Assembly: GCA_965637545.1 (NCBI GenBank) | Contig: OZ281494.1 | Span: 2,418,001-2,482,000, forward strand | Length of the DNA: 64,000 nucleotides | Direction of reading: 5' to 3' | Source of the DNA: Phallusia mammillata | Lineage: Eukaryota | In this document: positions 975 to 64,000 of the stretch, piece by piece | Numbering within the stretch: the stretch's first letter is position 1 | How the letters are laid out: every line of letters begins with the position of its first letter | Translations under genes and position numbers: made by a program | Notes under the pieces: model-generated | What the model was told of the DNA's origin: nothing | What the model saw: only the letters and a program-made list of their open reading frames with translations | The model's database searches: none

Positions 975-3900
975 CTGGGTTTCTTTGCGACCTGATATTT
1001 CAGCAAATTTGCGATGGGCTTTGTAATATCTTTCGACGTCCTTTTCCTTAATTCGAATCGGACCAGCAAGATCGGGATTCCAATTGACTGCAACTACCTT
1101 GAAACAGACGTATTAAGTATTGTAAATCTCCGATGCAACTTTGTAACGGTGCCTTTGTTTGTTATTCAACTATAAATACATATTTGTTGTTTGGATGTTC
1201 TTCTAAGCCAGGGGTGGGCAACCTGCGGCCCGCATGCGGCCCTTCATTAAAGGTTGTGCGGCCCACAGAGACACTTGGATTTCAAAAGTACTGGCAAACG
1301 AGTCCAATTATCACATATTATTGAGCTGAATAATGCGCCTGATGCTAGTTTTCTGCGATCTGGCAAAATGTGGCTAGAATCAAATACGAATTATACTTGT
1401 AGTTAAGCATATTTGGTAAGAAGCACAGCAAAATCTCTTTGTGTTATGCACATGTGCGGCCCTCGATTCAATTTTGACATTTATAATTGGCCCTACAGTA
1501 ACAAAGGTTGCCCACCCCTGCTCTAAGCGTTCATGCACCAGCGTTCATATACACATCATATTACACCAGGCCTATTAATGGCGTAATACCGAATCGGCCA
1601 GTCACCAAGCTATCCTAAATACGACAAGGCACAGATTAAAAATGTATCCTGCAGTGGGATTTGGGTCAATGAAAGGCTCTTTGTAAACTTGATTTGGTGT
1701 ATGTTTAAAGGGTCCTCAGGGAGCTTGTGTGTATGCCCAGTCCTGTAAAAATCTATGCTGCACGTAAACTGGCATATGGCTACAGCATGCACAATTAGTG
1801 TTGTTTACAGTGGTCCTCAGTGTACTAAGTGAGCTTGTGTGCCTGCCCAGACACATGAAAATCTATGCTGCGCATAAACTGGTGTGTGGCCACTTCTTGC
1901 ACATCATATGTTGCCCACAGTGGTCACTCACGAGGCCTAGCTTAAGTATAGGCCCAGACATTTGAAAAACTGATGCGTGGTCACAGTGTGCACATTTAAC
2001 GTTTAAATACAGTGTGTACCCAAGTGTACCAAAGAAACTTATGTGCATGCATAACACACATTAAAATATATTTACATTAGGAGGATCAATAATTACAATT
2101 AATTAGTTAGATCAAGTACTGGTACTCACTTTGCCAAAGTAGTCCGTAACGATGTGACATTTCTGATGCTCCTGATGTGCCGGATGCTCAGTATTATAAT
2201 TGTAAGTATCCCATGAGCCAGGAACTTCCGTCAATGTTTCAAAATCTTCCGGTGATTCTTTGCGTAAGGTTTCAGCCACAAGGAAAAAATCAGTGAGTCT
2301 GCTCTTGCCCCCGCGGATTATTTCGTCAAATCTGAAATTTAAAAAAAAAAACTAGATTGGAAATACGTCTTAAGTTATTTTCTAAATGCAGTAGGAATCA
2401 AGTTTTATAATAAAAGAACACGTTTAGTACAAGCAAAGATGGAGCCGTGTCGTGGGTTTAAATCTTATGGCATGAGGCAACATGTCAAAAAAACAATTTC
2501 TAAGTTTTCTCTGTGCCAATCACTGTACTGTACATTAATTATACTGCACTTAATTTTTTTTAGGGATCTTTAGTGCATCGTTTAGGCAAAAACCGATAAT
2601 TTATTTGCAATATATTTTCTGCATGTTTTTAGTCAGTTTAGTCTGCAAATCTCTGGGTTGAGGGTTGGACGTGTTTGAGATAGAACTATTAGCCTTGTAT
2701 AATACTCTTTTTGTGTTGCTTTTTTGAACACAGCAAAATTTATTTGTTATGTATACGATAACTAACTAATTTAGCCTGGAAATAAGTGTTTCCTAACTTG
2801 TGACTTATATGCAGAGGTAATAATGTTGGTATAAATCAAGAATTACTTTAAGCAGTGCAGGAATACGACCCCAGGTGGTTGTTCGTATGAGCATTGATCC
2901 ATATGAAAGGGAAGAAGAACCTCATTATTGTTTCCGTGTTTTTTGCCGCTGAAGTTCACGTCAAATCGCTATAAGGAAAAATATGTTTACATTTATAAAA
3001 GTTACAAAGTTCACAATACGCAGTTTGAAGGATGGTACTAAATACCGCATGTGACCGCATGTTACCGGATGCTACCGCATGTTACCGCATGTTACCGCAT
3101 GTGACCGCATGTGACCGCATGTTATTCCGCTTAAAATACTGCATTGCATGTGAAATGCGGAAATACAAGCCCAACAAGGGTAAAATAAACCAGATTCTAG
3201 TGTTATTTTATTTATAAACCCTCACCCAACCCGAATAGCTCTAACCGTTAGCGCTTCCAAAAGTCCGCAAAATTATATTTTCGTAAAAGCATATTTAAGT
3301 CCTTTACAACTTCCTGTCGTGTGATAACATGCGGTCACATGTGGTCACATGTGGTCACATGCGGTAGCATCCGGTAACATGCGCTATCATGCGGTATTAA
3401 GTACCACCCCAGTTTGAGTATCATTTCCCGAAAGTATTTGCACAAAACGTAGCACCTACGATGTTTGTATCCGAGTTTGTATTTACAGTGGGCTACAAGA
3501 AGGTAAAATACACCGACTTGAAAGAACTTAGGTACTAGGCCTCAACGCTTCAGGAGTGATCTCAGTATGAATGTATTCATGTTAACAAAAGGTAACATAG
3601 TAAAAAAAGATTATAAGCTGCAGACAGTACCCACAGTTTCGACCTATGCAGCGGGTGACGAGTCACATACCGTGTTGGCTAGATTAGCCAAGTGTTGCTA
3701 TTAACGGATTTTGTGAGGCATGGCCTTTCAGCCTCACACTACCAACGAACTGGAGTGTTATTGGGTGGCTGCACTAGCCAATACGGCCTATGTCTTAACA
3801 CCAGCTGCACAGATGAGACCTTATAGGCCAAAACAGTGTGCAATATCTGTAGCTTATCGTTTACTGGCTTGATACTTTAAAAAAAGAGATGCCGCGTAGA

Positions 3901-6900: not shown

Positions 6901-8400
6901 TTCAAAAGTCTCAAAATTCAGTTGCACCCACAAATATGTCTGCTTTCTGCTTATTGTTGATATTAGCTGGCACAAACCACTATTACCAGCAAAAATGTTG
7001 GCACGGGAAGTCATTACCGCATGGAAATAACATGGAAATTGACACGCGTCGATTGAAATGTAGTCGACCTCTGCTACAGAGCGTGACATTATTTTATGAA
7101 CAATACAGCCCAGGAAAAATGTTACTACATTTGCTCTTTTGCAAGTTAAAACTTAATTTAGAACTAAAGTAAACCACGGTTAATCCGGACCCCTTTGGAC
7201 CAAACAATTTGTGCGGATCAGGCGATAATCAAGACACAGACCAGAAAACCCGCATTCTATGGGCCTGGCGTAACATGATTTGTATACGAGTAAGTTATGT
7301 CTTATTTGTTGATGGTCTTCATAAACACTTCAGGGCTGATCGCAGATATAAATCTATGTTTATCTTAGGTACATTATATTCACGGTTTCGAATAATCTGA
7401 GCAAAAAATCTGAGTGTGTTCATCTTGGCTGGTATATAGTTAAATGCAAGTTAGTTGTAAAAATATGAAATAAGGAACGAAAACGGAAAAACGAAGTGGC
7501 TTAACAGGTCATCGTTTAATAATGTCAAATAAATATTCCCCAAATAAACCTTACCCTTTTCCTCCACATCAACTTTGGCGACTGTCAGAACATCTGGAAA
7601 TGCTGGGATATCAACAAGATAAGTTCCTTTTAGCTCGGGCTGGCATTTCTTGCAACGACAGTAAAATCTCAACCATTTCGTGTGAAACCTGAAAATGAAA
7701 GTCGGTTTTAGCACGATGTTATTGTGTACAAAACATTGACAACAGGCGACACAACTAGATTGTTTTGTTACTGTTTTAAAATTGCCACGCCTCATTGATG
7801 CAAGTGCCAGTTTTTAACACTCATTTTAGTAACAAAAAGAAACAGAAACGAAATGGTAACTTGAGCATGACGCGTTTACAAGCAAATCAAACTTCACATT
7901 TAGTGACCAAATCTGCTTCTATTGAAAGAATAATGAATGTTTTTACCATTACACATCATCGCTACATATGACTGGTTCGAACAGTGTAAAGAGTAGTTGT
8001 ATTAATTTAATGAAGAATATAATGGCCCAAATAGACTAAAAAAAGGACATGCTTTATTGTTCAAAAGTTTCGGCAAATGGTCATACCTTCATCAGTGATA
8101 TGAGGGCTACATCAGTTACACCCGTGTATATACACTGAAGTCCCAGAAAAGATCAATAATAAAGTGCAAAACATGCGTAAAATGGTATGATTTTTACATC
8201 CTAGCAGCTTGTAGGAAAGACCACAAAAAATGCAAGCAGTTATAATTGGCATATGTTAGTTTAGGTTAATTGTTTAGATTTTTCAACCATATATAATTGA
8301 CTTTGCATTATTCGTACCTGCTCTTATGTTGGTCGTTCCAAGTTACCTCCACCAATTTTTCACCAGCACTGGCACAAGCGGAAACAATCGAAAACTTCAT
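975..8400 (-). CDS. Gamma-butyrobetaine hydroxylase-like Fe(II)/2-oxoglutarate dioxygenase, paralogue A (3'-partial; last two exons lie left of the window)
   Basis: Exons 8318-8400, 7555-7688, 4709-4931, 4261-4336, 3924-3968, 2847-2968, 2130-2331, 975-1097, all GT-AG and in phase. Translation MKFSIVSACASAGEKLVEVTWNDQHKSRFHTKWLRFYCRCKKC...GFCLVKNVP...LGPIRETCYGT...LPFHMDQCSYEQPPGVVFLHCLK...GGKSRLTDFF follows the BBOX1/TMLHE layout (N-terminal WLRxxCxCxxC Zn motif, HxD, PPGxxxLHC, GGxS). Confidence 0.9.
1209..1520. mobile_element. hAT-type MITE
   Basis: TIRs CAGGGGTGGGCAACCT / AGGTTGCCCACCCCTG; TSD TTCTAAGC/CTCTAAGC; subterminal GCGGCCC motifs. Confidence 0.88.
1705..2045. repeat. Degenerate tandem repeat (about 120-bp units)
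   Basis: GGTCCTCAG...GAGCTTGTGTG...TGCCCAG...AAAATCTATGCTGC...TAAACTGG occurs at about 1711-1780 and 1812-1890, with a third decayed unit. Confidence 0.6.
3030..3409. mobile_element. Foldback/Mutator-like element with long TIRs built of 10-bp tandem units
   Basis: Arms 3030-3126 and 3326-3409 are inverted, made of GCATGT(T/G)ACC repeats; 9-bp flanks CAGTTTGAA / CAGTTTGAG. Confidence 0.8.
3613..3857. mobile_element. Palindromic repeat (family H2) with a hammerhead-like motif in its arms
   Basis: Inverted arms ATAAGCTGCAGA...TTGGCTAG / CTAGCCAA...TCTGTAGCTTAT; right arm 3806-3842 reads TGCA-CAGATGA-GACCT-tat-AGGCC-AAAA-CAGTG-TGCA. Relatives at 8862-8918, 17600-17690 and 54997-55285. Confidence 0.65.
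5228..5296 (+). mobile_element. tRNA-derived SINE head (tRNA-like pseudogene)
   Basis: A-box-like TGGTAGAGCG, B box GGTTCGAATCC within a GTGGG/CCCAC T-stem, mismatched acceptor stem, shortened D arm. The flanks recur inverted at about 1565-1607 and 7320-7367. Similar heads at about 22642-22701 (+) and 34075-34118 (-). Confidence 0.65.
5608..6019. mobile_element. hAT-type MITE
   Basis: Ends CAGGGTGCACAACC...GATCCCTG; TSD CATTAGAG/CATTGGAG; internal homology to 16018-16555. Confidence 0.7.
6765..7073. mobile_element. Degenerate hAT-type MITE
   Basis: Ends CAGGTGTCAGCAACC / GTAGTCGACCTCTG; GGCACG/CGTGCC subterminal motifs; TSD 6/8. Confidence 0.55.
8020..8100 (-). mobile_element. Penelope-like terminal-repeat fragment with degenerate hammerhead (family H1, copy a)
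   Basis: Minus strand 8098-8061: TCA-CTGATGA-A-GGTA-tgaccatt-TGCC-GAAAC-TTT-TGA, followed by AATAAA; homologous to 11213-11295 and 28040-28152. Confidence 0.7.
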
Positions 8401-8861
8401 GACTGTGAAATCGCACTACAGAAATTTGCCACACTGAGCTGCGTCTAAACGTGACAGAGCATTTGTTGCAACCCTGCGTTCGTTGGAGGGTTTGCATTTC
8501 ACCCATTTGCTCACCTTCTTTGCAATTTTGCTACAACATGGCGAAGGTCGGCAAAGAATTGACGCTCAGCTACAGCATTCGTCAAATTGAACCGTCATCA
8601 CCTAAAAATCATTTAGGGTTCAAAACACGAGCAAACTAACAAGGTGGACTCGTGACAATTTTGAAACCAAAGCTAGTATAATTTAAAACATATGTTTATC
8701 AAAACTCGTTTACATATAACGTAATGTTTCTTTGCAATCTTGCTTTATTTAGAAAACACAAACCGTTTTATGACATTTATATGGTAATATCTAATGTTCA
8801 AACTCAAACACGGTGAAAACGACTGTGAAAACGTATTTGGACAATTTTGAAGCGTGGCAAT

Positions 8862-8918
8862 AAAGGTCTCATCAGTGCAGCTGTAATGATATTCGCCACT
8901 GTGGCTAGTATATAGCCA
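8862..8918 (-). repeat. Family H2 arm fragment
   Basis: Minus strand CAGCTGCA-CTGATGA-GACCT, truncated before GAAA; TGGCTAGTATATAGCCA flank as in other H2 copies. Confidence 0.55.
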
Positions 8919-9878
8919 GGTTACGGAACTCTTTTTTGTTGGACGTAAAGGGTCAAAAAAACATGCCATACCAGATGCGTTGGTTTGAGTTGTTGTCAAG
9001 GTTTACCAATTGTACATGTGCCTTTTACTACCGAACAAAAATTTTAGGGTATATGTTTGAATATTATAGATTGATAAGGTTAAACACAAAGAAGGAAACA
9101 AAACCATCAATTTGTTGTTTGCTTTAATTTTGGTTTTAAGCCTTGCACGAATTCTAATTAAAACAGCAAAATCAGTTTGTAAAGTAATCCACTGAAATTT
9201 CACAACCCCAGCAGCGGGCGGCGCAAATAGCATGACCCTTGACCCGGGGTGAGTTCTGATTCTGCAACGAGCTTAAGTCATGCGTAAAAAGTGTTAGTCA
9301 GCAACAGGTGCCACTAAAGCGTGACAAAGGACACAGCGCAACCACAATGTAGAATTTAGACGGTTTAACAAAAATGTCACTTGAAAAACAATGTTTCTGT
9401 AGATGCCTGAAGTTCCTTCTGTTTTCAGCGGCGCTTGTCAAAATATTTCAACGCATTCTCAAAAGTTATAATCGTATGCAATAATCTTAAATGAGAATAA
9501 AATTGCTGTTGAAGTAAAGCATGGTGATGTTGTCATTTAAACCAAACGCTTTACCGCTTTACCAATGGCAATTTGTTTTCAGTTAATGTCCTGTGTACCT
9601 AAAACAATGCGCTCAATTTTCTTTAGCTAGCAAGATTGAAAAATAGACACGGCACTTAAGCTCGGTAAATCAATTACACTTTAAGAAACATAATAAAATT
9701 TGATACGCATTAGTGCGCATGTTTACACATTTTAAAAAGTTTCAGATGGAAATTTTTATGTAGGCTATTATTTCTTTGTCGACGTGGCTTTTTGGGCAAG
9801 GAATGTGCAGTACCTTATATTTGTAACTGCACATTAAGAGAACATTTTATTTTGTAACTCATGAGGTACGTCACAAAG

Positions 9879-9969
9879 TTGTGTTGTTACGCCCAACAGC
9901 GGCACTCAACGGGTATATACTGAAAATATGTATACCCGTTGGGTGCCGCTATTGGGCGTAACAACACAA
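9879..9969. repeat. Near-perfect inverted repeat (about 40-bp arms) between the two dioxygenase genes
   Basis: TTGTGTTGTTACGCCCAACAGCGGCACTCAACGGGTATA ... TATACCCGTTGGGTGCCGCTATTGGGCGTAACAACACAA, two mismatches. Confidence 0.9.
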
Positions 9970-10672
9970 ACGTTACTACTTATATCACAAGTAGTAACTA
10001 CATTTGGCATCCGGTTATAACATCATAATGAAACAGTTCAAAGTCAACTTACTTTGTGTTCCACAGGTTTTGACGTGGTTTCAACAGAAACATAATTTTG
10101 GCAAAAAAGCATTTATTTTGTAAGTTCGACGTATTTGAAGTTGTACGCATTCCATATTGCCTGATAACATCTCAAAGTACATTTGTTAACCTTTCATAGT
10201 CAACGCCGCAGCTAAATGCTCTGTATTAAGTTCTGACTGAATTCCATCTCTCTGTCAGTTGCCTGTACAGTCATGTTAGAAACTAACTTTTGGATGTGCC
10301 AGTAAAACAACTGGCGTTTTTTCTGCATTTCCAACTCTGCACAACCAACCACGCCCCCAGGGAATTTTATTTTTGCGCAAGGACTTGCGATGTCACCAAC
10401 TGATTAGTTTACCATGCTGATTTCGTTTATTATGCTCACAGTAAAAAAGCTTTAATTAAGTTCAACTGTTCGATTAACAGTTTAGATTGCGCTTAACTTT
10501 CACAGAAAAACTCTAACTTTTAAAACATTCTTTACAGTTTTTTAAAAAAAACTGTTCCAAATTATATACTAACTTGCCTACAAAAGAGTCAGATTATGCA
10601 AATAATAAATCACAGCGAAGGTATATGGTGCATTTGGATAATGATTTAACATTCGACTTTTATTCCTCGTTC

Positions 10673-13600
10673 TTAGAAGGAGCAGGTATTTCCCACTTTT
10701 GGTGGAGTCAAGTTTTTGCTCAGTTTATGTCCAAGATACATGTACTTGCTTTTCACATCGTCCAGGTCGAGAAAACAAGTCTGAAAAGCAAAGATAGAAT
10801 GAATATCAGTAGTAATGCAAGACGCGATTTAAAATATTAAACGAACGTTTATGTAAAAAAGCTAAATTTAATGGAATATTTAAAAACATATATATTCTAT
10901 GAATCTTGTTTAAATGATAATGGCCAACGTACGTAAACAAACATTGTTTTACAAAAAAAGAAAACTGAGCAAAAGTCCTTGCAAAGCAGAAATAAAAATA
11001 ACTTACATGCCTATGTGTGATTTTAAGGAAAGCATATTTAAAATAAGAAAACGTCGTCAAAGTTGAGAAAAACAAGTCTTGTAAAAGAGAATATTAATCG
11101 TCATTAGCTCATATCTTTAAAAAATCATTGTGATCGACCAAAAGCTTTTTAAGCAAATATTTGTGACCTTTGGAACACTATATACGGATCTGTTCATAAG
11201 TTTAATGGTAAAAATAACGGCCCAAATAGACGTAAAAAGCGACATGCTTTATTGTTCAAATGTTTCGGCAAATGCTTATGCCATCATCAGTGATATTTGT
11301 GACCTGTCGATGAATAAATGGAATAAAGCTTGCTAATGAAAGAAGCAAGAAATTATAGCAATATAAAAAATCTTATTTTCAAATGCATCACCTGCATATG
11401 TCGAGACCCACAATCAGCCACAATTTTTTCCCTTCCATGAACACATCGTCGATTGTTCACAACCATCACATCGCCAGCTTCCAGTCTAAATGTGATCTGA
11501 ACAAAAATAAATGTAACAGAGTTTATGTAATACGGTGGGTGGCATATTGACTTTTTTCTTTTTGACATGCTTAAAACTTTCACAGTTGTTTTGATAAGGC
11601 CAAATGTGATCGGAACAACAATATTGTAACAGAGTTTAAGAAAACATAATGACCTGTCTATGGCACACTTTACACTTTCACAGTTATTTTAATAACGACG
11701 AAATTTTAAACCAAGTTTCTGCAGCTGGGTGAGTACGAATTTATTCGGTAAAATTTGGTTGGTTAATTTTCTTGCTGACAACAAGTTAATTGTTTATGGA
11801 AAACATAATGACTTGTCTAAGACACACTTTTAAAGGTATTTTGATAACGCCTGGTAGCAAAAAATATTTTTGTCAAGTGCTAAGAAAAAGTGAATCTCGT
11901 AGTGGATAAGCGCAACTTTAAACCAAACTTACTGCAATTGAATGAACATGATTTTTAGTAAAATAGGTTTGGTTAATCTCGCGCTGAGAACAAGGCAATT
12001 GTTATTTTTTATGATTTCTTATCACATGTCTCTTATTATTTATGCTTTTTTGTTGTTATTTTTGTAGTCTGTTCTATTGAAAGACAAAGAATTTTTATTA
12101 TCTCTACCTGATTTTCAGGACGGTTTAGGATTTCGCTAAATTTTCTGTGTGCTTTGAAATATCTGTCTACGTCAGATTGACGTAAGCGAACCGGCGCAAA
12201 TTGATCTGGATTCCACGTCACACCCACGATCTGGAAACAAAGTGAGGAAATAGAAAAAATTAAACTGGAAACGTGATTGAAGCATATTCTCTTTGAGCAT
12301 TTACAGAATAATGCTTATCAGATCACGGTTGTAATCATAGAAATCGTAAATCGTAAACATCATGTTTAAATCAATAGTTAAACTTGTCGTTAAATAGTTC
12401 GTGGCTTCCGTCAAAAGTACACGTCAAAACCTTGTGGCTTTCCTGCTCAAACATCAAAACGAAGGATTATGTTCATGTACTTAAAGTAAAGGTGGGGCAC
12501 AAAAGACAATGGACTTCTTACCATAACACCATAATGCCCAAAGTTGTCATTTTGACTGTTTACAAACAATTTTAATAACAAACATCCAAACCTTTCCGAA
12601 GTAATCGAGAACAATATGACATTTCTGATGTTCCATATGACAGGGGTGGGTTATGTTATAGTTGACGATATCAAACGAGGCTGGCACTTCGGTGAGAGTT
12701 TTAAAATCTCCCGGAGATTCTTTGCGGAGAATCTCAGCGGCGTAAAACGCATCAGTGATCCTGGAATTCCCGCCTGACACCGTTTTGTCAAATCTGTTGT
12801 TATTGTAAAACAAAAACACGGAACTGTTCAGGATTTGTACAAAAAATATAACAAACCAAATAATCATAAAAATATAGGTGCTTTATTTTTTAAGAATTTG
12901 ACCAATTCTGTTTCGTGTTATTAGTGATGAACATTTGCAAAAAGTTTGATAATAAGACTGGCCGCTTTTTACCTACATCTGTGCCATATTATTTTTCACA
13001 AAAGTTTTGTCGACTTGTTAGTCTTGTACTAAGTGTATTTTTAAGCAAGCAAATCTCCTACTTTTCAGCAATAAGTGAGTGAAAGTTTTGCTTTCCTTCA
13101 AACGTGACAAAACAGGAACAACAGAATGGTACTCTGTTAAAAACTGTAACATGAACAAAGCATGTACTTGAGGCAATGTAGAAGAAGAACACCAGGGCAA
13201 CTCTCGTATGAAGGTTGGTCCATATGTAGAGGGAGAGCTCCTTTGTTGTTTGAACCATGTTTGCCTCCCGATAAGCGAATGTCGATGTACTGAGTATAAA
13301 TGCCCGGTATTTATACAACCATTTACTTAGCCAAATTAGGTTTACTTTCATATTTCGATTTAACATCACAACGTAACAACTTTGTTGCATGTCAGGCAGT
13401 AGTCAACCACTTCCATCAACTTTTACGGATATTTTATAAGCCGGATAAGCCGTAGACTTTATAAGAAATACTTACGTTGTGGTATATATGCATGCGGTTT
13501 AGATTTTGGTTGACATAATGTTTTTGCAACAAACGCTTAAAATAAACCACAGCAAAGCAAATTTTACCTTTCCATAAGTTGTTTCCAGTAGTGGTGATAG

Positions 13601-16600
13601 TTTTTTGGCAATCTGATATCATAACAAAACAGCAAGATTAGTTTTTAAAAATTTTTGTGTTAAAAAATTCTCTTTACCTCAACGACGATGCCGTTTTCCA
13701 ACGGAACTTGTTTTATGAGACAGAATCCAACCTCCATAATTGTTTTAGCCCATCTGTGTAACGCAATAATTAAACTTTAATATGTATTTTTCCCTGGTAA
13801 AAACTAATCACTGTAATAACTGGTAAAGTGGATTGAATCTAAAGAAACGCTTCAAAGGCGATGGTCAAAAAAGCGTGCAAACAACTTAAATTACTTGTGC
13901 TAATAATGGATATTCTTCAAAGCACATTCCATTACGATTGCTATGGTCACGTGCAGTGTTTTTTAAGGTGTTTTTTTTAATAATGGATATTCTTCAAATT
14001 TCTCCAGCGGTTTCCCAAAATTAAATATGGCTATTTTTTGGTATTTAAATGAAACACTTGCGGTCTCTTAAAACTACTTAGCGGTCACCCAAACCAAACC
14101 TTAAAAAATACCCTGGTCACGTGAGTAAAATTGCGAAAAGGCGTATAACTTTCTTGTCGCTTGAAAATGTTATCGACAAAAAGAAAACCCACTTAAAAAC
14201 GCCTTCGTCGTCGCCCAACTCGCTGTGCGTCATTTTCGGCATCTCTCTCACTCCAGCCGATATTCCATAGCGACTGATGACGTCACGAGCATTAATGACG
14301 TCATGGAGGCATGCGTCACAGTTGCAACGCTCGCGCAGCCATTTTGCCGGGTGCTTGATCACGTGATCTGGGTAAATCTCCCCCGAGATTTGAATTGAAA
14401 GGTTGGTACCTGGGAAGTAGAACATCATAGAAGTTGTGTCTTTATTAAATGTTCTAATTTATTTTACAATACTCGTAATTGAAACTTAACGCTGGAATCA
14501 CCCAGTCCGTTGCTTGGTGGATGAAGAATAAAAAGCCTTATAGCAATAGATGTAAGTTCAAAAAAACACTTAGTCGTTCACCCTTTGGTTTTAAAGATAT
14601 ATATATTTCGCTAATACAGCATCGTCAGTATCTACGAATAAGCAGAAAGATTCATTAAAATAAATGAAATCAGTATGCATAAAAATCTACTAATGAAAGT
14701 GTGAAATAGAATGCTGCTTTATATCGATGTTAATCTTTAATGTTTGTGATCATTTGAATGTATACATGTGTCAGGGATTTGTAAATGATGCAAGTTTAAT
14801 GTGTTAGACCGAAAAACAACTGCACATATTTTCGATTATTGCTTTGAAAGAAGGCGTGATTTATAGTCTAGCATTCTATGTTTTATACTTTAGTGATTGC
14901 CTGTAGTGAGAAGGTCAAATAACCTTACCTTTCTCTCCTACGTCTACTTCAAGAAGATTCATTTCCTCGGGAAAAGCTGGAATATCGACCAGATATAAGC
15001 CCTTGAATTCCGGCACACATTTCTTACATCGACAAAAGAAGCGAAGCCATTTCACGTTAAACCTGTAGCAATTGTAGTAATATTAATAAATGTTTAAATC
15101 AACCAATATTTAGTTGAAGGTCGGGTCAGCTAATGCGCCAGAAATTGAGGAAAAATCGATTCTTTTTTCAAGGCCTGAGTCTGGCTGGAAAATAAATTTA
15201 TCACAGTAATGTAACAGCATAAATGTGGCAGAGTGTATACGTTTGGCCTAAAGCAAGCTCGTTTTATTTCAATCAAAAGCCGAACTGGATAAATGCGACG
15301 CCCTGTTTGGTCTAGATCAGGGATCGCGTGTCAAGGTTGGCACTTAATGTAATTTTTAGGCCCCGAACGATTTGCGTGCATATACAGGAGTTTCATTTAG
15401 AGTGTTTTCAGTTGTCGCTGATATAGATAAAGAATAGTGGAAACAGTTTTTTTTCAATTTACAAATCAATATAATTGACTACTTTTTTCGGCTGCACTAA
15501 TTTTGATAATCAAAAGACAAATTAATGCGTATCAGAAAAGAATGATGACGTTTAAACCAGTGCTCTTCAACCGGGTATACTGTATACCCAAGTGTATACC
15601 ACATTAAAATTAGGGTATACGACTGAAGAAAGGTATACGAAGGGAATATAGCTGAGGTCAGTGTTACTAAACGTCGCTATTTTTATGAAATGCAGGAAGA
15701 CATAGCATGGTGACCAATGTGAGACTGACCTGCTTCTTGTAAATATTATTGCGTCAGGTTGGGATTGTTGCGTCAATAATGTGAATTTTGAAGCAATTAA
15801 GCACATACCTGGAGTATCTGTTAAGGTTGAACAATGTACTTTCTAAAATTTCACTTTTAATATTCCTGGAGTAAAGCATTGCGAATACAAAAAATTGAGA
15901 ACAAGTCAACTCCACAATCCATGTCCAAATCGCTCAAAGAATGCAGCAACAAGCCAGCTATTAAATCAACTTCTTAGGTTTACACACTTTTTTATGCAAA
16001 ATTTCCTGGACGTAGCACAGGGGGTGCACAACCTTTCCGCCGTGACGGTCGCATCGTAAACCCTTATTAATAGTGCCTGATAGCCAATTTAATTTCTAGC
16101 TTGTTACGTAGAACAGTCTATAGGGATCAGGCTTTACTGTTTGTAACGTCACCATCTAAATCAGGGGTTCCTAACCCGGGGTGCACGCACCCCCAAGGGG
16201 TGCGAGAACTGTTCCTAGGGGGTGCGGGGATGCTGAATCATTAAGGTTGGTTAGGTCTATTCTATTTAAGCAATTACAGAAGGGGGAGCGAAAATTGGTT
16301 AGTGATTTGTAAGGGGGTGCGAAAATTGGTTGGTGATTTGAAAGGGGTGCAGCAAGGAAAAAAGGTTAAGAACCACTGATCTAAATTGTGACGCTAATGA
16401 TGCCTGTTTTCACATTGTTTGCCCGTAATAGGCTTACAAAAAGTCTCAAACATGCGGCTTTTGGGCTGTTAATATTTTTTCCAGCCCCTCAAACTAGTTT
16501 TGCAAATCCAAATATTTCAGTTTACATGTTCACGGCCACAGGTTGTCTACTCCTGGCCTTGTATAACAATAATTCACGCGACCAGCCAAGTACCTATTGG

Positions 16601-17111: not shown

Positions 17112-17599
17112 GTTTCGTCCAGGCACACACTTTTTCCAACTCGATAAGGAAAATACTAACCTAGATCCTGGACGAATGCACAAGTAACTTATAAAAATGA
17201 CGTGTTTCGAATGTTTGGTTTGATTACGTTTCATCTCTACATCATTGATAGCGTCAAACCAAAGGCACGATTGAAAAATGTAACATAGGCTTTCAAGCTA
17301 ACATACAGTCATGTTTACAGTTTTAGAGATCAAAGCACAACCAAACACACGTTGTTTTGAAAAAAACTGTAAAAACATAAAATTCAACAAACTCCATTCA
17401 GATACACAACTGCCACACATGGTTTGTAAACAAACAGACGAATCCTTGACTAAAAACTAAACTGTGACGCTGAGCCGACTTCACTTTGGTTTTCAAGCAG
17501 TTGCTTGGACATTTTGGGCCAGTTTCCTCAGTGGTGTATGCCCCAATTTTGGCATCGCACAGACCAGGTGGGGCACGGGTTTTTAGCCTGTTAGTGCCG

Positions 17600-17690
17600 T
17601 TGGATGGCTACACTAGCCAATACGACCGATCTGTCCTTACCGGCTGCGCTGATGAGAACGTATAAGTCGAAACACTGTGTACCGTCTGGT
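17600..17690 (+). repeat. Family H2 arm with hammerhead-like core
   Basis: TGGCTACACTAGCCAATACG...GCTGCG-CTGATGA-GAAC-gtataa-GTC-GAAA-CACTG-TGTA (17645-17681). Confidence 0.6.
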
Positions 17691-29600: not shown

Positions 29601-32600
29601 CAATATTTCACTCAACCATTGCTTGGATAACTTGGTACGCGATGGACTTATGAGTGAAGATGTTGCTCTCAGTGTGAGTCCGAATTTCGTGGAGTTCCAA
29701 ACACGCTCGGCGTCACCTACATTAGTGGATGAATATCAGAGCGACGTCGAAAAGGAACGAGGTGTAGAGAAACTTCTCGACGTCCTAACCAACCTTGGAC
29801 TTGAAAAGTTGCAACGCTGCCGCAATTGTGTTTTGGGTCGCTTGTGTCAACTCGCCAGATACGAAGATTTTGAAAGCGCACAAAAAGCGGCCGCAGCAGC
29901 CAGCGATTCCTCCCCTGAACTCTCAGCTAGCAGAAAAACTTACGAAAAACCCGAAATTGTAAAGTTTCCCGTCGTAAACTCTCCACCACGCGCTCTCACA
30001 ATAGGGAGAGTCCCTTCTACCGAAGACTCTGAGTTATCTGCCACTGAATCTGATGATGACTTTTACTCGTTACGTCATCAAATCGGACGTCAGCGTCATG
30101 ACGTCATCACCAATCCGACAATCGAGGAAGAAGATGATGACAATGATTTCTCTGCAGAAACTAATAAAAGGCTTGATCAGAATCACAATGTTCTCGGTTC
30201 GAGGGAGATTGTTGACGTCAAAGCTGCGATGCCAACTTTGATTGATAACTGCGTCATAGCGCCACGTCATGCTTGGCTGATTTTGGGCGCGGGCGATGAA
30301 CATGACCAGAAAGCAAAGTTGAAGCAATTTCTTCGCCTCGCGGATCAAGCGAAACTCCAATCTTTGTATTCAAATCCGCAATTCAGTTGGATTAAAACCT
30401 TGATGGAAGATGACAATATTGTGGAGGCTGTTTCAAATCCGCGTCTCTCATTTCTCAAAGCAAGAGAGAGATTTCAGAAGCCAGCATCCAAACTGGGAAG
30501 ATCTTCCTCCCTTCGTGCATCCGATCTTCATGGAGGGAACGCTCCCAATTTTTCGGATGTTGCTGATCTTGTGGAGAAGCACGCCGCGGCTCGGGAAGAG
30601 CAAGAGAAGAGACTCTCTCCTCCTCTGGACGCGCTCCTGAAAGGAAGAGGAGCAAGTTTGAGAAGAACTCAATCCGTGAACATGAACACTGGCGCCAACT
30701 TAAGGGAGAACAGAAATACCGACAACGGAACTGGTAAGATTAACAAAGATAAAGATACAAGTGGTTATCAAGGATGAACAAGAATATACTGAACTTAAAA
30801 AGTATACCAAAATTTTTGAAAGTATACCAAAATTTGCTTTTTATATAATATGTGTTCATTCTGCACCACATTAATCAAAGTTTTAATAATTGTCAGTAAT
30901 ATATTCAATATGAATTGTCAAATACCAATGTTTGAGAAATTTAAGTGCTTTGAAACGGCTCCTTTCGTTAAAGTTTTTCATAGCCTAACTCTAAACAAAC
31001 CGCTTGCTAAATGCATAACGATTACACCACCTTCTTGTTTAATTTGTTAAAATAAATTGACCTTTTAAGCGTATGCTAGTACGAAAGCATGCCTTAGTCA
31101 TTGCCTAAATTCATATTTGGAAATGTCAAGTATGAAGGCGATTAATTTGACAACTTAAACCTCGCGCGCCTTTAACGTAATTACTTGAATACCTCACTAA
31201 CACACTTGACACCACACACACACTTAATTGTGCAGCAATTTACATCAATTACACGTGTTCATGCGAAGATCTAAACCTTATGTGCATGAAATTGGTTTTT
31301 GCAAACTAAATTAGGAATTTGGTTTTAAACCGGTTTTCAAAAGTTGTTATTGCTTCAGTAAAGTAAAGCATTAACTGGGAGTCTGATCTGTTGAAATTCT
31401 ATCAAAATATATTTTAGAATTGACCTGATGGAAACTCTAAACCAGGGGTTTGCAACCTTTGTAACTGTGGGGCCAAATACAATTGCCAAAATTATATTGC
31501 GGGCCGCACCTTTATGTAACACAAGGTGATTTTACTTTGTTGCATGCCAAAAATGCCTTACTACAAGTAAAATTCGCATTTGATTCGTGCAGCATGTTGT
31601 CAGTTCGCAGAAAAATAGCACAGGGCGCACTAATCTGCTCATGAAAATATAATAAATGGACTCGATTGCCAGTACATTTTAAATCCAAGTGTCTCTGCGG
31701 GCCGCACAACTTTAGTCAAAGGGCCGCAGGTTGCCCACCCCTGCTCTAAACTAACAATTAAAATATCTTTTAATTCAGATTGTGAAAAACGTTTTATTTC
31801 AAATTGGCATATTTGTTGGTCAATAAATCAATAATATTTCGCCCCAAACCAAAAAAGCAAGTTTAAATTTACCCACATGTTGATTTACAGCCTGAAATTT
31901 AAATGACAGTGCAGCTAATTGCAGCGCCCTTTCATGAAATTTTAGCATTTTGATGTTGTTTACCACGCCATTAGGACAAGTATCCTTTTTTACCGTTTTG
32001 CATCATTACTGTAACACAGCTCATTTATAGCAAAATAAATTAAAATTGTTTTTTTGCTGTTACGTGCTAGAGAACGAAATTGAATTTAAATTTACCCCAA
32101 TGTCAGTTTACAGTTTAAACTGGCATTGACTGTAAATGATTGCTGCGCCTTTTTTCAATTTTACGTTTTTTTGTATTATTATAAGCTTACCTGATAGCAT
32201 CAAAGGTGACGTTCGTTTCTATAAAGTTCATAACATATAATTAAGTATTTTTTTAGTTTTCAGTAGGGCAGGGGTCAGTAACCTTTTTTGTGCCGCGGAC
32301 CGTTTTTGAAACGGAAATTTTTTTGCGGACCCACCTTTAAAAAACAACAAATATTCAGCAATGAAAACGACACAATTTTGCCGCTGTAGAGGACTCCATT
32401 TAGCAAAACAAATTAGCATTACTTTCTTGCTTATTCCAGACGAAAACTTGAGCAGTTGGTGCCGTTCCAAGCAGCTTTCCCAACAAATCACCGACGCCCT
32501 GTCACAAAACGGATACCAGGGAGTTGACGATCTGCGGGGAATCACCGAAAGTGAGATCGAGCAGCTGAGCGGACTTGGTTGGATCGAAAAAGCCAAATTG

Positions 32601-48119: not shown

Positions 48120-48337
48120 CAGTGATTCTCAAACTCGGTTTTTGGGGGCGCATGCGGATCCCAACTACTTATTTTGCGGCTCGCATCAGACCCCAGAAAA
48201 CCACCAAACATTGCTATTTTAGCTTTCAAAGTAATAATCTTTAGTGATTTTCTCAAGGTTTTGTTTGTTTTGCGGCTCTCTACACACTTTAAAAAATACC
48301 ATTTGGCCCCGACAATAAAAAAGTTTGAGAACCACCG
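48120..48337. mobile_element. hAT-type MITE in the presumed HIPK 3' region
   Basis: TIRs CAGTGATTCTCAAACT / AGTTTGAGAACCACCG; perfect TSD ATCAAGAC; same family as 62298-62818. Confidence 0.88.

Positions 48338-48936: not shown

Positions 48937-64000
<15,064 letters not shown>

Follow-up and report, generated by a model that had tools for sequence, protein, structure and literature searches.

The palindromic-looking element at position 3613 of the window, the whole 64-kb stretch of DNA analysed here, is very probably an old and damaged insertion of a 282-bp hammerhead-bearing unit, a non-LTR retrozyme, whose inverted arms are likely one-step products of a Penelope-type reverse transcriptase/endonuclease borrowed in trans. 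The unit defines a new non-LTR retrozyme family, which the machinery of Penelope-like elements (PLEs) likely mobilises; the palindromic appearance probably reflects a Penelope-type insertion, a known layout, and not a new kind of element. The enzyme that moves animal retrozymes has so far been argued from co-occurrence and phylogeny, at least in the available portions of PMC7229834 and bioRxiv 10.64898/2026.07.22.740005, the latter arguing for a PLE origin of retrozymes on these grounds; the young, high-copy retrozyme described here displays the full PLE insertion signature. The value lies in this family and not in the window copy, which is an inert-looking relic.

Four places in the window are mutually homologous (E 1e-11 to 1e-3), as an earlier sequence-only reading had noticed, and two of them, 3613-3857 and 54997-55285, indeed comprise two inverted arms each with hammerhead-derived sequence facing outward; both begin with the same 11-nt word. 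The boundaries needed revision: the right arm of the first element continues beyond 3857 through a tail to about 3877, where a probable 10-bp duplication follows, and the places taken for single arms at 8862-8918 and 17600-17690 are really 8863-8956 and 17461-17688, the latter most of one 282-bp unit. In the following list, unit positions are numbered from +1, the first base 3' of the predicted cut site, and identities refer to a young unit.

3601..3610, no strand: probable left target-site duplication, 10 bp, A-rich, repeating the 10-mer at 3878-3887
3613..3690, minus strand: inverted arm with the short end, unit about +10 to -81, 72/84 identities
3704..3877, plus strand: forward arm with the long, tail-bearing end, unit -142 to about +33, 138/173 identities
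3803..3854, plus strand: decayed type-I hammerhead, supported by alignment to the unit and by the fold of a young copy
3857..3877, plus strand: one-sided tail, aligning to unit +10 to +33
3878..3887, no strand: probable right target-site duplication, 10-mer identical to 3601-3610
8863..8956, minus strand: old fragment, unit -120 to -25, 71/90 identities
17461..17688, plus strand: nearly full unit, +43 round to +2, 192/227 identities, E 2e-57
54997..55118, minus strand: inverted arm of the second composite copy, unit about +9 to -99, 95/115 identities
55130..55285, plus strand: heavily decayed forward arm of the second composite copy, 114/154 identities over 55130-55300

With a short end at 3613, a long end at about 3877 and the probable 10-bp duplication, the first element fits the family described below. 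The duplicated 10-mers lie at the positions predicted from the family's short and long ends, and their low complexity makes the duplication only probable. All window copies are damaged, with about 74-86% identity to the unit over aligned bases, and every copy carries a lesion, as reported earlier. A 14-nt deletion removes the catalytic core from the arm at 3613-3690, and the right arm of the same element carries CAGATGA and AAAA: in its hammerhead, stem I pairs 3803-3809 with 3848-3854, the core at 3810-3816 has the change U4A, G12A lies at 3830 and C17 at 3847. The fragment at 8863-8956 has an intact core and is truncated within stem II; the copy at 17461-17688 retains core and GAAA, with stem II mismatched and the 3' strand of stem I gone; and the arm at 54997-55118 has CTAATGA, the G5A core lesion. 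An Rfam search of the 64-kb window returned no hammerhead at E<=5. The fragment at 8863-8956 sits among exon-sized frames on the minus strand (7451-14458) with Pfam matches to TauD and GBBH-like_N, which likely represent a gamma-butyrobetaine hydroxylase-like gene or genes, judging from these matches.

The unit itself is seen best in a head-to-tail array (locus L016) with a period of 282 bp, 4.3 copies and 98% matches; other arrays of the family hold 1.7-3.6 units each. It is non-coding, has no poly(A) at its ends, and is found both in tandem and dispersed. First-look candidates in the 240-Mb genome numbered 1397 in a DNA search, and 40 of them were scored. A 27-nt word from its ribozyme is matched exactly at 514 places in the genome, against 0 for the reversed control, so the family is not a product of chance, and since copies that are 98-100% identical occur at many loci, the unit itself has been recently mobile. 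Units show a mean of 0.6 differences within an array and of 7.5 between arrays (minimum 0), an identity that does not separate a circular from a multimeric template. Contigs from four runs guessed to be RNA cover 19-30 of 30 bins, and contigs cannot show ends, strand, cleavage or circularity. One locus (L308, G000:C6:2902800-2909800) is an inverted multimer array of five near-identical units with an assembly gap inside, and several young arrays adjoin 200-N gaps.

In a 66-nt young copy the minimum-energy fold is a three-stem type-I hammerhead (-17.9 kcal/mol) which runs from a 7-bp stem I through the CUGAUGA core, stem II, GAAA and stem III to C17; stem III has 6 bp and a palindromic loop. This fold is no more stable than those of shuffled sequences (z -0.73), for which reason stability alone is not evidence for a hammerhead. 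The Rfam hammerhead models align the young copy in the same register, weakly and below threshold (21.5-21.7 bits), and between 86/87 and 93/97 arms retain the core positions that lie beyond the search word. A word search with position 17 left free yielded 752 matches, and among the first 100 listed this position is C in 98 and G in 2. The G17 suspected earlier, which position 3847 also contradicts, arose from a mis-registered stem III, the palindromic loop having been taken for stem I. In the full unit or circle the hammerhead is predicted not to form (stem I probability <=0.02), and a hairpin from +8 to +43 is predicted in most long contexts (probability 0.7-0.94, with one exception at 0.09). 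Such a loss of the fold could keep the template uncut.

The manner of insertion was read from 97 of the first 100 listed places among the 514, three places already covered as L011 being left out. These gave 84 loci, reduced to 78 insertions once 7 overlapping or duplicate ones were dropped and to 75 once 3 more segmental duplicates were dropped. Inverted insertions account for 39 of the 75, all facing outward, and the remaining 36 have a single orientation. The inverted insertions span 76-594 bp, not the fixed size of about 245-290 bp proposed from the window, and their junctions are distinct in 39 of 39 cases. Their outer ends cluster at about +9 (short) and at +37 to +39 (long) past the cut site, separated by a tail of 29-30 nt that is present on one side only. 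Where both ends could be classified, one was short and the other long in 26 of 27 insertions (p 2.1e-7); at least one end fell outside both classes in 12 of the 39. A broader set that overlaps this one holds 48 inverted insertions, all young and clean, with 36 short+long, 1 short+short, 0 long+long and 11 other combinations, i.e. short+long in 36 of 37 classifiable cases. Direct repeats of at least 10 bp flank 39 of the 78 insertions as compared to 0.2% of 1500 mismatched flank pairs, and the target-site duplications have a mode of 13 bp, a range of 9-16 bp, 76% AT and variable sequence. The junctions between arms (n=48) overlap by 1-8 nt in 29 cases, are blunt in 4 and contain 1-13 extra nt in 15.

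The arms themselves carry further information on their origin. Two arms that share an insertion have 19 of 51 variants in common, as against 315 of 3943 (8.0%) between insertions, a value reached in 0 of 2000 permutations; this could reflect one source RNA, and could also come from a dominant master copy, subfamily timing or gene conversion. At least 285 nt are reached by 22 of 96 arms, in a set partly selected for long arms, and these wrap into the next 282-bp unit and not into an ORF. Arms end at the cut site 6 times where 2.7 were expected (p 0.059), and a post hoc count restricted to long arms finds a stop there in 7 of 24 passes (p 0.03), no more than a hint that long arms tend to end at this point. 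Arm stops are also in excess at unit -86 to -70 (16 against 7.0 expected, p 0.0025, one of 8 windows).

The sequence-only reading had proposed a non-autonomous hammerhead family that is tied to PLEs and whose inverted copies carry outward-facing motifs, and this much holds; the MITE-like element that it built on them does not. A MITE or other fixed palindromic element, in which terminal inverted repeats bear paired ribozymes by design, would account for the palindromic appearance of the two window copies and their common 11-nt start, and is nevertheless extremely improbable. The fixed two-arm structure that such an element demands is refuted by the variable junctions, none of the 39 being common to different loci, an outcome that the sequence-only reading had itself named as refuting. 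In addition, the lengths range widely, the two ends are unequal by the 29-30 nt tail, the duplications vary in length and sequence where a transposase superfamily makes a fixed short duplication, tandem arrays exist, and nearly half of the insertions (36/75) are in a single orientation. A transcript of either strand would meet a ribozyme in the young copies, as had been envisaged, in a geometrical sense; this is likely a by-product of insertion, and the window copies are all damaged.

The genome is rich in elements that combine a reverse transcriptase with a GIY-YIG domain and have minimal hammerheads behind the frame. Open PLE frames reach 796-851 aa, with Poseidon-type frames of roughly 800 aa at L183, L260 and L261, and apparently intact frames coexist with the retrozyme family. 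Two groups are distinguished here solely by the presence (Neptune-type) or absence (Poseidon-type) of the CX2CXXC linker described for Neptune (PMC8557442). Among the Poseidon-type elements 11 inverted pairs were found, and 7 of the 8 evaluable ones have direct repeats of 13-17 bp and a one-sided tail of 25-30 nt; the Neptune-type gave 9 pairs, with repeats of 12-16 bp and a tail of 76-90 nt in 7 of 8 evaluable ones. These Neptune-type tails are longer than the 30-40 bp given in the consulted portion of PMC8557442. The local inverted pairs (L258-L277, L223) have duplications of 12-17 bp in common, and their tail length is group-specific. Two pieces of PLE are present in the window, both on the minus strand: 14548-14713 is a solo terminal-repeat piece with a hammerhead from a Neptune-type family (95% identity to L255, 91% to L253), and 57225-57358 is a decayed hammerhead-bearing end from a Poseidon-type family (about 80% identity to L335/L338).

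A reverse transcriptase/GIY-YIG ORF beside the arm, which had been suggested as a feature to look for, was not found in the partial PLE searches or in 120 family loci. The PLE searches scored 149/472, 113/752 and 150/534 candidates, and none of the 157 PLE loci they covered uses the 282-bp unit as its terminal repeat. Unit pieces occur at 13 of the 157: six were directly examined and all lie outside the PLE body, four can be put down to identical or duplicated loci or to an independent insertion (L123, L261, L276, L332), and the remaining three are short matches of 21-28 nt. A tblastn search with 20 PLE frames against the 120 family loci and the window found no attached PLE coding sequence, its sole match being a separate PLE near L040/L042. 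The unit's tail, compared to PLE tails (37 targets), shows no significant similarity (best 16/300 shuffles); the stem II of one Poseidon-type family looks like that of the unit by eye.

Against this background the unit could be read as the detached terminal repeat (pLTR) of an unsampled or extinct autonomous PLE, its copies being truncated PLE insertions and not an independently mobile retrozyme. Truncated PLEs do yield dual hammerheads on opposite strands, 100-700 bp apart (PMC4209133), retrozymes have been proposed as pLTR derivatives (bioRxiv 10.64898/2026.07.22.740005), and the PLE candidates were scored in the above fractions only. We nonetheless regard this reading as unlikely, given that arms exceeding the unit length carry on into a following unit, that the 120 family loci are devoid of attached PLE coding sequence, and that the near-identical copies at many loci speak for recent mobility of the unit in its own right. 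An origin of the unit from a pLTR in the past is possible. Less probable still is the mobilisation of the unit by a LINE-type reverse transcriptase with inversions produced by twin priming. LINE target priming would fit AT-rich duplications of 10-16 bp and microhomology of 1-8 nt at 29 of 48 junctions, and the genome contains many RVT_1 elements. Twin priming, known from L1, takes its inverted piece from a variable position inside the element, whereas in the present insertions the two outer ends are fixed and the arms are repeats of a single region. The reading conflicts with the fixed short and long ends and is disfavoured; the unit also lacks a poly(A) end and is unmatched in the 30 loci of an RVT_1 search, and the local PLEs have the same layout as the unit.

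Mobilisation by a PLE protein in trans, the preferred reading, could proceed as follows. The protein would cut the two strands of the target with an offset of about 13 bp, and each target 3' end would prime reverse transcription, one at +9 and the other at +38 of the RNA. The two cDNAs would extend upstream, halt at variable points and then be joined, often by microhomology. The arms extend upstream past the cut site, where the template should therefore have been intact; no more than 38 nt could be copied from a cleaved monomer, which argues for a circle or an uncleaved multimer. With its 29-30 nt the tail suggests a driver of the Poseidon-type and not of the Neptune-type, an assignment inferred from the layout only, as no PLE tail showed significant sequence similarity to it. 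A more specific proposal is put forward tentatively, as one that may well prove wrong: the protein-free retrozyme RNA may bear paired Penelope reverse transcriptase start sites that bracket the predicted hairpin behind the ribozyme, with one PLE dimer using both at once to copy a single RNA, circular or uncut, into the two ends of the 13-bp staggered cut. If true, the strict rule of one short and one long end would show directly, from genomic data, that animal retrozymes are driven by PLEs through two-ended target priming, and tail length would single out a Poseidon-type driver without any shared sequence.

A biochemical precedent is provided by the Poseidon PLE PAc of Anolis, which in vitro cuts both strands and extends each of them, begins synthesis at two internal positions bounding the tail and works mainly on RNA that is uncleaved; the protein is predicted to form a dimer (PMC11167929). 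The family described here shares with it the two putative starts bounding a tail downstream of the hammerhead, the presumably uncut template and the AT-rich target. PAc is autonomous with start sites within its ORF (PMC11167929), whereas those proposed for the retrozyme fall within non-coding RNA and were deduced solely from the genomic ends.

The sequence-only reading had not recognised the layout as a described class, yet the portions consulted of three earlier reports contain its parts: PLE insertions with an inverted 5'-truncated copy and a one-sided tail of 30-40 bp (PMC8557442), an inverted pLTR with a 31-bp tail and duplications of 8-10 bp (PMC3846280), and the dual hammerheads mentioned above (PMC4209133). 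With endonuclease-positive PLEs (PMC8557442, PMC3846280) the family shares the inverted 5'-truncated copy, partial tandems, the one-sided tail of about 30 nt, target duplications and AT-rich targets. Unlike them, the unit has no ORF; it also differs from the local PLEs in its full 6-bp stem III (minimal 1-2 bp in the latter) and in its short end, which lies 9 nt from the cut site compared to about 40-75 nt in local Poseidon-type elements.

The unit has every testable feature of a non-LTR retrozyme, appears to lack the attached frame of an autonomous PLE, and does not have the features that define MITEs. In common with the metazoan non-LTR retrozymes, as described in the consulted parts of PMC7229834 and PMC7761336, it is a non-coding unit of 150-450 bp (282 here) with a type-I hammerhead, tandem and dispersed copies, duplications of more than 4 bp, a GC content of at most about 50% and co-occurring PLEs. 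Those retrozymes self-cleave and accumulate as circular RNA (PMC7229834; PMC7761336), whereas the hammerhead of the present unit is a predicted one. The word 'inverted' is absent from the main text of PMC7229834; here half of the sampled insertions are inverted and follow a fixed short+long rule. MRC1 (PMC8557442) and the Xenopus retrozymes (bioRxiv 10.64898/2026.07.22.740005) are, like the unit, non-coding, head-to-tail multicopy elements with PLE-dependent insertions, and according to the same sources their terminal sequence is often that of an autonomous family as well, whereas no such partner was found here among the 157 PLE loci. The main text of the latter report does not contain the word 'tail', and a statement of the short+long rule for a retrozyme was not found in the literature searched, which covered few subscription papers. 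The family offers an exceptionally clear genomic trace of the way in which such elements likely insert, and it supplies a small, defined RNA along with named candidate proteins for tests of trans-mobilisation and two-ended priming.

The window contains other repeats. Another hammerhead-like repeat is present in two copies that are 85% alike (8006-8101 and 11201-11296, minus strand), with no clear match to the sampled PLE loci beyond one weak hit. A near-perfect 90-bp hairpin lies at 9879-9969, and its chance matches to miRNA families are far below threshold. Further dispersed or inverted repeat pairs are found at 1209-1520 and 31443-31743, at 3030-3112 and 3327-3409, and at 48154-48285 and 62313-62443.
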